A stretch of DNA of 64,000 nt from Felixounavirus LF82P3, in sequence record OZ035772.1; one strand, given 5' to 3'. Made by a program: the position numbers and the translations under genes. Below are positions 42,775 to 43,011 of this stretch, piece after piece; positions within the stretch are counted from its first letter, which is position 1, and every line of letters begins with the position of its first letter. Under the pieces are notes generated by a model that saw only the letters and a list, made by a program, of their open reading frames with translations, was not told the DNA's origin and made no database searches.

Positions 42775-42946
42775 TTTTCATTTCAGATTTGTGCAGGTAG
42801 AGTTCTGTAGAGAAATCTATAGAGAAAATTTTGAACTCCAAAGAGAAAATTCATTTTCAAACTGTGCAGGTAATCTCCAAAGAGCTTTTTCATTTTCAAA
42901 ACGTGCAGACCCCGCTCAGGTCGGGCAAGAAAAATCATTTTAGAAT
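42775..42946. repeat. Four ~24-bp direct repeats, consensus TTCATTTTCAAANTGTGCAGGTA (iteron/operator-like)
   Basis: Copies at 42775..42799, 42849..42872, 42887..42910, 42923..42946; irregular spacing. Confidence 0.7.
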
Positions 42947-42973
42947 TGTGCAGGTAGGTTTTTATAGACAGCC

Positions 42974-43011
42974 AGCCCAACCCCTCTCCCCCTCTTACTC
43001 CCCCTCTCCCC
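42974..43011. repeat. Polypyrimidine C-tract (G-tracts on minus strand; G-quadruplex-capable)
   Basis: CCAGCCCAACCCCTCTCCCCCTCTTACTCCCCCTCTCCCC; anomalous in AT-rich context. Confidence 0.6.

Follow-up and report, generated by a model that had tools for sequence, protein, structure and literature searches.

A conserved array of bipartite direct repeats at the inner border of the terminal gene cassette of Felix-O1-like phages: a candidate operator array

The window, that is, the whole stretch of 64,000 nucleotides that we analyzed (OZ035772.1), is the genome of a Felixounavirus (Ounavirinae). According to the annotation of phage H12, 14-42.7 kb is an early/middle metabolism transcription unit. 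The array reported here is located between a conserved macro-domain operon (PNK-spanin-macro) and a right-terminal small-gene region of variable content and length, and a solitary fifth copy of the repeat is found 4.2 kb upstream of it. The features of the locus are as follows:

38604-38621, + strand: solitary fifth copy, TTATTT-N7-GTGCA (segment 38598-38635), directly 3′ of the rIIB terminator
42734-42775, + strand: intrinsic terminator at the end of the PNK-spanin-macro operon, 17-bp stem and T tract
42772-42801, + strand: repeat copy 1, GCTTTTTCATTTCAGATTTGTGCAGGTAGA; core TCATTTCAGATTTGTGCA at 42778-42795; PWM score 37.2 bits; found in all lineages
42835-42845, + strand: spacer element ACTCCAAAGAG, ahead of copy 2
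42845-42874, + strand: repeat copy 2, GAAAATTCATTTTCAAACTGTGCAGGTAAT; core TCATTTTCAAACTGTGCA at 42851-42868; PWM score 35.5 bits; missing from Si3-like phages
42874-42884, + strand: second copy of the spacer element, TCTCCAAAGAG, ahead of copy 3
42884-42913, + strand: repeat copy 3, GCTTTTTCATTTTCAAAACGTGCAGACCCC; core TCATTTTCAAAACGTGCA at 42890-42907; PWM score 27.3 bits; the most divergent copy
42929-42958, + strand: repeat copy 4, GAAAAATCATTTTAGAATTGTGCAGGTAGG; core TCATTTTAGAATTGTGCA at 42935-42952; PWM score 31.5 bits
42976-43015, no strand assigned: C-rich tract, whose + strand is devoid of G
42981-42994 and 42998-43011, no strand assigned: arms of a homopyrimidine mirror repeat, CCCCTCTCCCCCTC-TTA-CTCCCCCTCTCCCC, as read by us from the letters
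42981-43011, minus strand: G4 motif GGGGAGAGGGGGAGTAAGAGGGGGAGAGGGG, 31 nt, four runs of 4-5 G with loops of 3, 7 and 3 nt
43012-43058, no strand assigned: conserved block AAAAGTCAAGAGAAAAATTTGTAGCGGATTGAAAAATAATTCTTGA, 47 bp, the most conserved segment of the spacer
43093-43111, + strand: degenerate half-copy TTTCATTACAGTTTTGCCA, which retains the TCATT half and not the GTGCA half
43133-43161, + strand: sigma-70-like promoter, TTGACT-17-TAATAT, annotated as a promoter in ASO1A

The T tract of the terminator extends into repeat copy 1. A terminator at this site is annotated in ASO1A and XTG1, and in Moogle-type phages the sequence of the stem differs while a helix is still predicted by alifold. 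At the other end of the gap, the promoter at 43133 that had been noticed in the first-pass annotation is indeed present, and it is the first in a series of repeated promoter/hairpin/RBS cassettes found throughout the small-gene region at the right end. The 47-bp block is almost invariant in the relatives that we aligned, reaches 92% identity in a window compared with Moogle, against 73% in the macro gene, and contains an imperfect inverted repeat, TCAAGA...TCTTGA. The half-copy, detected by a relaxed motif search in relatives and by reading the sequence, lies directly 5′ of the A/T-rich region of the early promoter. The small proteins encoded nearby, considered as possible binders, have no assigned function, and Pfam shows neither a DNA-binding nor a Rep domain in the flanking proteins. 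The 581-bp direct terminal repeat (DTR) determined for Pr103Blw maps to 46992-47581 of the window, and the record of H12 starts exactly at 46992. The array is separated from the terminal-repeat region by 4.0 kb in the window, by 6.1 kb in H12 and by about 5-7.4 kb in Si3, Moogle and Erwinia MM7; one IMG/VR relative has less than 0.2 kb between them. Thus, the proposal that the array marks the edge of an accessory cassette is supported positionally by comparison of synteny, with variable small genes on one side.

Four direct copies of the bipartite sequence TCATTT-N7-GTGCA are found on the + strand at 42772-42958, in agreement with the first-pass report of four direct repeats in a non-coding gap. 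Several of its details needed correction. The array spans 183 bp and not 170 bp, and while the repeats are real, the conserved entity is not a 24-bp repeat but the 18-nt bipartite core, within units of ~30-39 nt. Relative to the 23-mer given at that time, copy 2 has no mismatches, copy 4 has three, and copies 1 and 3 have four each by manual count. The description of the region as compositionally foreign holds for the C tract only, as the repeats themselves are AT-rich. The repeats start 73, 39 and 45 nt from one another. The spacer element CTCCAAAG is invariant in nine of nine diverse Felixounavirus and Moogle-type sequences, and therefore the repeat unit is really ~39 nt. Copy 3 terminates in GACC instead of GGTA, and in copies 1 and 4 a conserved T(A/G)TAG(A/G) is found 9 nt 3′ of GTGCAG.

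To score the motif we used a PWM built solely from relatives of other genera than Felixounavirus. Scanning both strands of the 64 kb, it reported exactly the four array sites, with 27-37 bits; the next-best site scored 13.9 bits, and the maximum over 30 shuffled sequences was 18.2 bits. Scanning the complete 87.6-kb genome of a relative gave the same outcome. The four repeats are not a chance occurrence, and the search for further copies, suggested at first pass as the test that could refute the element, found them unique in the genome and not scattered at random. No match to the motif was found in enterobacterial genomes or plasmids when bacterial genomes and plasmids were searched, which excludes a host or plasmid source, and a metagenome scan yielded just additional Felixounavirus-type loci plus unrelated satellites.

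The array region is present in all 288 matching GenBank records, comprising 260 Felixounavirus, Moogle-type and SUSP-type phages (a figure reproduced by an independent search) and 28 Erwinia phages. The array, its strand and its location after the terminator of the macro-domain gene are kept in five lineages: Felixounavirus, Mooglevirus, Suspvirus, Erwinia Kolesnikvirus and an unclassified IMG/VR phage. There are four copies throughout, except for Si3-like phages, which have lost copy 2 and carry three. The half-sites are invariant, and the variable parts are the central 7 nt, some of the spacer sequence and the spacing, which is 73/39/45 nt here, 75/41/45 nt in Moogle-type phages and 37/37/39 nt in Erwinia phages. 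Copies 2-4 share 70% of their nucleotides with the Erwinia copies, compared with 58% nucleotide and 31% amino-acid identity for the adjacent macro gene. Features specific to individual copies are also retained between E. coli and Erwinia phages: the CGTGCA variant of copy 3 is common to the positionally equivalent Erwinia copy, and the flank of copy 4, GGCAAGAAAAATCATTTT, is common to Erwinia copy 3. The sites are under strong purifying selection as DNA, and the repeats, present in every relative examined, withstood the other proposed refutation, that the region be absent or variable.

Products encoded by the region itself could be set aside. Open reading frames of 70 aa (+ strand, with HFQxVQV repeats) and 76 aa (minus strand) are present here, and relatives annotate different, non-homologous small ORFs in the region; a coding micro-ORF is ruled out, since the unit spacings of different lineages differ by non-multiples of 3. 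A search of Rfam with the region gave no match, either at the gathering score or at E<=10. The alifold covariation term was -0.7 for the + strand and +1.4 for the minus strand; the z-scores of folding, +0.86 and +0.77, indicate that the region is less structured than shuffled sequences. A structured ncRNA is thus ruled out, with no Rfam match or covariation on either strand and with positive z-scores; no tRNA-like element was detected in the region, and the irregular spacing and the absence of structure rule out a CRISPR-like or ToxI-like array.

Next to the repeats, the C-rich tract contains the sole G3+N1-7 quadruplex motif of the 64-kb window (any such motif arose in 18 of 200 shuffles), and the G4 prediction asked for at first pass came out positive, with four runs of at least three G separated by loops of 1-7 nt. 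The mirror arms are exact, 14 nt each around a 3-nt spacer (TTA), longer than the 10 nt taken as the minimum for H-DNA. By sequence potential, the tract is therefore both G4- and H-DNA-capable. It is not the pure 38-nt polypyrimidine tract that had been described, but two pyrimidine runs of 16 and 14 nt interrupted by A42997. With 29 C against 3-4 G per 50-60 nt it is the strongest C>G window in the part of the window transcribed from the + strand, and its composition is that of a rut site (C-rich, G-poor, unstructured, at least 40 nt; folding z-score +0.86), so that read-through RNA crossing the tract, if there is any, would offer a very good Rho loading site. Shorter C-rich forms are found in Moogle, SUSP1, Erwinia phages and the IMG/VR phage L063; the G4 motif is retained in Moogle and SUSP1, and Erwinia phages have three G runs. 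One metagenome variant carries an additional CTCTTACTCCCCC unit in the tract. However, 143 GenBank relatives, about half, carry in place of the tract an unrelated sequence, which we term allele B, with no canonical G4 motif and a weak skew (13 C to 6 G), and this weakens the earlier proposal that the G4 tract is part of the element. A C>G skew beside the array recurs in four lineages despite the differing sequence. As a large Felixounavirus clade replaced the tract, it is not required for the array. Judged from these sequences, the C/G tract is an ancestral accessory spacer, dispensable in nature and so not an essential part of the element, and the striking G4/H-DNA motif should not be treated as essential to it.

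Several assemblies break within the tract, which seems to be a cause of breaks in short-read assemblies. The TH10 assembly breaks at a 74-nt overlap made by the assembler; one contig reads into a Nextera adapter.

The solitary fifth copy provides a link to transcription. It overlaps the -35/spacer region of a sigma-70-like promoter, whose -10 hexamer TATAAT is at 38630-38635, upstream of the ORF at 38667. This promoter starts the PNK-spanin-macro operon, and therefore the sites bracket that operon. With 13.9 bits, the fifth copy stays under the highest shuffle score here; its counterpart in Moogle-type phages reaches 19.8-20.8 bits. TGTGCAG is invariant within an otherwise variable promoter spacer, 7 nt 5′ of a perfect TATAAT, in Felixounavirus as well as in Moogle-type phages, and as this TGTGCAG is upstream of the predicted transcription start, it argues for recognition as DNA. 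The fifth copy was not found at the Erwinia and L063 loci examined.

From these data we infer that a protein binds the sites and that the outcome is transcriptional. In our preferred reading, to which we assign a probability of about one half, the array is a set of same-orientation bipartite binding sites for a putative sequence-specific DNA-binding protein, probably phage-encoded, with transcriptional control as the result. The array would be a cis-acting DNA element in an untranslated gap, with the operon terminator on one side and the cassette promoter on the other. Occupancy of the fifth site would regulate the promoter of the PNK-spanin-macro operon. The four-site cluster may act as an anchor whose high avidity favors cooperative binding or looping, as a roadblock that stops upstream transcription before it enters the terminal cassette, or as a titration sink, and these roles may apply singly or in combination. 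The candidate operator array of the first-pass annotation is thus favored by the conserved bipartite motif and by the fifth copy in a promoter. Several observations count against this reading. The fifth copy is weak in this window and was not found at the Erwinia and L063 loci. While it overlaps a promoter core, the four clustered copies do not, and they overlap no recognizable promoter in E. coli and Salmonella phages. In addition, all five copies are on the transcribed strand, as an RNA-level element would show. A possible binder, suggested by its predicted domain, is a phage HTH regulator (XRE/HTH_3); its gene is at 5038-5367 of the window, minus strand, and none of the 260 Felixounavirus, Moogle-type and SUSP-type records lacks it. 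It was not detected in Erwinia phages, although the array is present there. XRE proteins usually bind palindromes, and the array motif is asymmetric, unlike those. The macro-domain protein is an unlikely binder, as the array persists where its gene is truncated (L063) or replaced (Si3-like phages). We also compared the motif by eye with consensus sequences, as leads only, and found no joint fit of sequence and spacing for sigma-54, sigma-E, OmpR, PhoP, CRP, Fis, the MarA/Rob marbox, the MalT box, MuA end sites, EcoKI-type bipartite restriction targets or the BsgI site. No experimental data on the array region were found in the searchable literature.

Foremost among the alternatives, though unlikely, is a replication origin, in which the repeats would be iterons for an initiator, the A/T-rich 43100-43135 the unwinding element, and the G-rich strand an aid to R-loop or G4-assisted priming. 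The four direct, asymmetric, conserved sites of ~20 bp, unique in the genome, suit it (at least three repeats of 17-22 bp are looked for), and so does their bipartite form, as iteron-binding Rep monomers typically use asymmetric bipartite sites; moreover, the low-stability 60-bp window at 43111 ranks ninth among the least stable of the 64 kb. However, that stretch is separated from copy 4 by ~150 bp and is at the same time the upstream region of the early promoter; lower stability and a better location are found at ~13447, in the divergent gap that separates the DNA polymerase gene from the replication genes of the + strand. The spacing of the repeats is irregular, differs between genera and lacks conserved helical phasing; 42601-43300 contains no exact DnaA box (two 9-mers have one mismatch) and no IHF consensus; half of the relatives have no G-rich tract; and GC skew follows the direction of transcription, with no origin-type switch at 42.9 kb. 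Among the flanking and replication-cluster proteins scanned, which are part of the proteome, there was no Rep-like domain, and the cluster yielded just the XRE HTH protein, an HNH-AP2 protein and a primase-helicase of the T7 gp4 type (Toprim plus DnaB_C). Replisomes of this type use promoter-type origins. A literature search found no replication origin described for these phages. The secondary origin proposed at first pass therefore keeps the direct repeats in its favor, against the irregular spacing, the missing DnaA and IHF sites and the lack of an initiator among the proteins scanned. Also unlikely is a broader proposal in which the array, its ancestral C-rich/G4 partner and the invariant 47-bp block would together form the master cis-element of the Ounavirinae life cycle, either an origin with a new TCATTT-N7-GTGCA initiator or a cassette-separating switch used by a novel phage factor. 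Such a switch could set a boundary to transcription or to DNA entry, much as the first-step-transfer stop does in T5, and so keep the terminal host-takeover cassette apart from the remaining genome.

An element acting as RNA is doubtful. Read-through transcripts of the upstream operon would carry the repeats and the tract, the tract serving as a Rho back-up terminator and the repeats as unstructured protein-binding or decoy RNA, e.g., a mimic of a type III antitoxin array of the ToxI kind, for which pseudo-ToxI arrays of phages provide a precedent. Besides the common strand of the copies, this reading is consistent with copies 1 and 5 beginning in a terminator T tract, with the tract being the strongest C>G window in a region that is less structured than shuffles, as rut sites are, and with the recurrence of the skew in four lineages of differing sequence. 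Yet the array is behind a strong terminator with a 17-bp stem, and therefore little RNA is expected to reach it. The fifth copy is inside a promoter spacer, the spacing is irregular, unlike that of ToxI-type tandem arrays, and neither the weak skew of allele B nor the lack of an Rfam match and of covariation speaks for it. More doubtful still is an array of tandem weak promoters or promoter relics, in which each unit would be a decayed or specialized promoter on the + strand or on the minus strand, the latter giving an antisense or non-coding transcript. The fifth copy does belong to a real-looking promoter, the hexamer conserved downstream of GTGCAG in copies 1 and 4 resembles a -10 element, and in Erwinia phage Ea21-4 the repeat units provide TTGCCA-17-TAAAAT (10/12) and TTGCCA-17-GAAAAT (9/12) on the minus strand; on that strand we also read TTGACT-17-TAAGAG (TAGCCT in allele B) overlapping the conserved block and the tract. 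Nevertheless, the arrays of E. coli, Salmonella and Citrobacter phages contain no promoter of at least 9/12 on either strand, the -10-like hexamers have no T in position -7, of the four Erwinia units only two pass, and the motif is absent before other genes and therefore does not represent a general promoter class. A pac/terminase recognition site, or the genome end itself, is very improbable and largely refuted. Terminase-binding regions are often repeat arrays, like these repeats, the array of the divergent L063 is within ~200 bp of TTAACA-type repeats resembling the Felixounavirus terminal repeat, and assemblies break in the tract. But the array is 4-7 kb away from the DTR in every named genus, and the TH10 overlap and the adapter contig point to sequencing trouble and not to a physical end; with the DTR 4 kb downstream, a terminus or pac site at the array is ruled out.

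The operator reading bears on phages that are well known. Felix O1 and related phages are classic typing phages and are now used in therapy and biocontrol, and the temporal control of transcription in Felix O1 was stated to be unknown (PMC3185647). Non-coding and unannotated, the array surpasses the adjoining genes in conservation across no fewer than four named genera plus an unclassified lineage. Its site brackets the PNK-spanin-macro operon and delimits the variable terminal gene cassette on the inner side, and the 18-nt bipartite sequence can be used as bait to find its reader protein.

Several known systems resemble parts of the locus. Like iterons (lambda ori ITN1-4 and the Rep-binding repeats of P1, F and R6K), the array consists of several same-orientation asymmetric sites of ~20 bp, non-coding, unique in the genome and beside A/T-rich DNA, and its distant extra site recalls the ori/crr arrangement of phage P4. 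It differs from them in its spacing of 37-75 nt, irregular and not kept between genera, in the absence of a DnaA box or IHF site and, among the proteins scanned, of a Rep-type initiator, and in having a replisome of the T7 gp4 type. With ToxI-type antitoxin RNA arrays and phage pseudo-ToxI mimics the locus has in common short repeats of ~36-45 nt in non-coding phage DNA, and the ToxI sequence presumably shares the strings GTGCAG and GAAATTCA with the array; here, a strictly tandem arrangement is lacking, these strings come in another order and at other distances, and neither a pseudoknot nor covariation nor a match in Rfam was found. The tract resembles rut sites such as lambda tR1 in that ~40 nt of the sense strand beyond the end of an operon are devoid of G, ~60% C and unstructured, and its composition is kept more than its sequence; it differs in being behind a strong intrinsic terminator and in its absence from half of the relatives. 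It also matches canonical G4/H-DNA motifs in potential, although Erwinia phages have three G runs and allele B no canonical motif.

With respect to transcriptional control, one site over a promoter core and a cluster kilobases away recall the looping between lambda OL and OR and the operators of P2 Cox and 186 Apl, the latter two also being direct, non-palindromic repeats. Cox and Apl recognize short boxes (~9 bp) with a phased period of 10-11 bp, whereas the array sites are of 18-24 bp and widely spaced, and the four clustered sites differ from all these operator clusters in overlapping no recognizable promoter. Finally, the promoter/hairpin/RBS cassettes to the right of the array, with small ORFs varying between isolates, are like the promoter-early stem-loop (PeSL) cassettes that border hyperplastic regions in T4-type phages; the array is the inner edge of this region, not itself a cassette, and is far better conserved.

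In the 2.2 kb around the array, identity to Felixounavirus genomes (NRG857CP1, VpaE1 variants, ekra) is 96-98%, and 244 phage records match this segment. By comparison with the annotated close relative vB_EcoM_H12 (H12), 14.0-46.7 kb on the + strand form the early/middle transcription unit, with genes for dNMP kinase, primase-helicase, ribonucleotide reductases, rIIA, rIIB, polynucleotide kinase (PNK), an Rz-like spanin and a macro-domain 'phosphatase'. The array and the C/G tract occupy an untranslated gap of ~520-531 bp, which holds, from left to right, a terminator, four direct repeats, the C-rich tract, a 47-bp A-rich block, a promoter, a 5'-UTR hairpin and a ribosome-binding site. 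The mapped features are:

41919-42704: macro-domain gene (Pfam Macro), upstream flank of the gap
42734-42775: intrinsic terminator with a 17-bp stem, first element in the gap
42778, 42851, 42890 and 42935 (starts), + strand: repeat cores TCATTT-N7-GTGCA, spaced by 73, 39 and 45 nt
43133-43161: sigma-70-like promoter TTGACT-17-TAATAT
43225: 62-aa ORF, downstream flank of the gap

The first-pass annotation had reported repeats and a G-quadruplex (G4)-capable tract here, and both are real. A weight matrix trained exclusively on copies from Moogle-type phages, SUSP1, Erwinia phages and the IMG/VR locus L063, with none from Felixounavirus, gave the four sites scores of 37.2, 35.5, 31.5 and 27.3 bits; the best non-array site in the window reached 13.9 bits and the shuffle maximum was 18.2. 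Scanning a complete 87.6-kb relative genome gave the same picture. The only G3+ quadruplex motif of the window lies on the minus strand at 42981-43011; any such motif arose in 18 of 200 shuffles.

Searching with the gap sequence brought up 288 phage records, of which 28 come from Erwinia phages and match at the repeats only. We compared five lineages (Citrobacter Moogle, E. coli SUSP1, Erwinia Ea21-4 and Coenus; 27 IMG/VR loci; Si3-like phages and Erwinia MM7; L063). In all, the array lies downstream of the neighbouring gene and on its strand; this neighbour is the macro gene in all but the Si3-like phages, which also have three copies instead of four. Positional orthology of individual copies between the window and the Erwinia phages is visible: window copy 3 has the CGTGCA variant in common with Erwinia copy 2, and window copy 4 the GGCAAGAAAAATCATTTT flank with Erwinia copy 3. 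Identity between the window and Ea21-4 is 70% for the array copies, 58% for the macro gene and 31% for its protein. Invariant within the gap are both half-sites, the CTCCAAAG spacer element and, foremost, the block 43012-43058 (92% identical to Moogle, vs 73% for the macro gene), while the central 7 nt, some spacer sequence and the spacing vary. This 47-bp A-rich block (AAAAGTCAAGAGAAAAATTTGTAGCGGATTGAAAAATAATTCTTGA) is the conservation peak of the whole intergenic region in Felixounavirus, Moogle-type and SUSP-type phages; it holds an inverted TCAAGA/TCTTGA pair, and its minus strand a perfect -35-like TTGACT. L063 (IMGVR_UViG_3300045988_063805), an unclassified 88-kb phage, shares the gene order of the window at 40-60% local translated identity (tblastx); no DNA relative outside its macro gene was found in GenBank, and it probably represents a new Ounavirinae-like lineage. 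Its short macro gene (148 aa) is followed by the motif (AAAATTCATTTTAAAAACGTGCATAGG) in four to five copies, split into two groups, beside TTAACA-type repeats.

The C/G tract behaves differently. Its 31 nt (42981-43011) also form an exact homopyrimidine mirror repeat (14-nt arms, spacer TTA), which would make H-DNA as plausible as a G4. Many Felixounaviruses, including VpaE1 and Bas63/JohannRWettstein, have unrelated sequence (GGGATGTCGCCATTTCTCACAAGGCTACC...) in the interval from copy 4 to the conserved block; this allele is found in 143 GenBank records, roughly half the group. C-rich versions in Moogle, SUSP1, Si3-like phages and Erwinia phages (in the last with three G runs only), and loosely in L063, indicate that the tract is probably ancestral and was later replaced; a single metagenome variant has one additional CTCTTACTCCCCC unit. 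Composition of the sense strand (C >> G) is better kept than sequence, which would fit a rut-type or structural role and not a sequence-specific site. As far as genome comparison tells, the G4/H-DNA tract is optional, that is, dispensable in nature. Assemblies break within it: GenBank TH10 starts there (74-nt overlap) and two IMG/VR contigs stop there, one running on into Nextera adapter, which we read as sequencing or assembly trouble rather than a physical end. Short-read assemblies of three IMG/VR loci (L011, L012 and L015, sample 3300045988) and of GenBank MT446388 break in or beside the tract, and one IMG/VR contig is chimeric beyond copy 3, joined to unrelated sequence.

The best clue to array function is a fifth motif copy, CCTTTTTTATTTGTATTTTGTGCAGAGTGC, at 38598. 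It scores 13.9 bits with the same matrix (shuffle maximum 18.2); the equivalent site in three Moogle-type genomes, ~4.2-4.7 kb upstream of the array, scores 19.8-20.8 bits. It lies immediately 3' of the rIIB terminator and overlaps the -35/spacer of a predicted promoter with a perfect TATAAT (TTGAAA-16-TATAAT in Moogle-type form), 30 nt upstream of the ribosome-binding site of ORF 38667, so that the motif is located upstream of a predicted transcription start. TGTGCAG is invariant there, and the remaining promoter spacer varies between genera. With the array, this copy brackets the PNK-spanin-macro operon by sites at both ends. Our best explanation, at a probability of about 0.5, is that the array consists of operator-like sites for a putative sequence-specific DNA-binding protein, acting on transcription of the bracketed operon and/or insulating the terminal small-gene cassette. 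The sole annotated regulator, an XRE-type HTH protein (5038-5367, minus strand), co-occurs with the GTGCAGGTA motif form in 260/260 non-Erwinia records; it is only a candidate binder, as no copy was detected in Erwinia phages and the motif lacks palindromic symmetry.

Several other readings were considered. A conserved ORF was rejected, as no frame survives spacings of 39/45, 41/45 and 37/37/39 nt and relatives' annotations differ in small ORF and strand, and so was a structured RNA, with covariation near zero on both strands, folding not above shuffles and no Rfam match for the region. The motif was not found in bacterial genomes or plasmids, a metagenome scan gave no new context, and five sites per genome are too few for a general promoter class. 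That the repeat units themselves are promoters is a minority view: two minus-strand promoter-like sites are built out of them in Erwinia phage Ea21-4, but no sigma-70-like promoter is predicted within the array in E. coli, Salmonella or Citrobacter phages. The repeats also look like iterons of a replication origin, as the first-pass annotation had suggested. However, their spacing is irregular and not kept between lineages, DnaA and IHF sites are absent from the region, no Rep-like protein was among the proteins scanned, the primase-helicase is of T7 gp4 type, and the closest low-stability DNA belongs to the region upstream of the early promoter, the gap by the DNA polymerase gene being less stable still. 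Most testable origin features misfit the array. That earlier interpretation is partly supported: the operator array is the favoured reading and the position at a cassette edge is supported, the secondary origin is less likely, and the replaceable tract is weakened as a part of the element.

We favor the operator-like reading. The Felix O1 genome paper (PMC3185647) catalogues other repeats together with predicted promoters and terminators; it describes temporal control as unknown and makes no mention of the array. Our searches found no other literature on the region. The array may be described as a conserved, putatively protein-binding repeat array, previously undescribed and conventional in kind; its strikingly unusual neighbour is the dispensable part, whereas the array is the conserved one.

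Other features of the window were recorded. A 471-aa ORF (56783-58198; 'RNA-binding protein' in H12) directly upstream of the cluster of 26 tRNA genes appears, by this position, to be the counterpart of the Ro60-like gp130 of Bas63, discussed in the Bas63 PhageMaP preprint as a possible Y-RNA partner. The minus-strand ORF 10116-10628, adjoining the DNA polymerase gene, combines HNH endonuclease and AP2 DNA-binding domains and looks like a homing endonuclease. GATC (Dam/MboI/DpnII target) is absent from 1-64000 (~226 expected from base composition), and CGCG (8 vs 91 expected), CCGG (19 vs 91) and GCGC (25 vs 91) are strongly depleted; complete GATC avoidance on that scale points to host restriction or MutH-type nucleases as a strong selective force. 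At 7440-7750 (minus strand), inside a 540-bp gap adjoining the ligase gene, a near-consensus promoter (TTGACA-17-TATACT) precedes ~240 nt of G/T-rich non-coding sequence (GGTGGGGTGGGGTGGTG..., GGTGCGGTGGTGTAAGGTGGTG...); this region, with the window's most stable 60-bp stretch and strongest strand-skewed tract, may be an ncRNA or else a second structural element rich in G.

The array does not mark the genome end. Pr103Blw has a 581-bp direct terminal repeat (DTR), defined by PhageTerm (PMC8303462) and annotated in MW481326, which aligns to 46992-47581, and the H12 record, PhageTerm-analysed by its authors, starts exactly at 46992 and finishes at 46991, which places the array ~4 kb inside the right end. 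The DTR and its flanks to ~48100 are dense in short repeats (CTTGTTAA / CTGTTAAGA / TTAACA-type) and contain the lowest-stability 60-bp windows of the entire stretch, with transcription converging from both sides. Across relatives, the distance from array to terminal-repeat region ranges from <0.2 kb to 7.4 kb, and H12 differs from the window by kilobase-scale replacements right of the array; from these comparisons, the terminal small-gene cassette is mosaic. Its small ORFs are flanked by repeated promoter / stem-loop / RBS cassettes (43133-43224, 43626-43708, ~44098, 45034-45119, 45606-45681), within which identical 19-mers (GGAGATTCAAAAATGGCAT) occur at 43213 and 43697, and these cassettes resemble the PeSL shuffling cassettes of T4-type phages.
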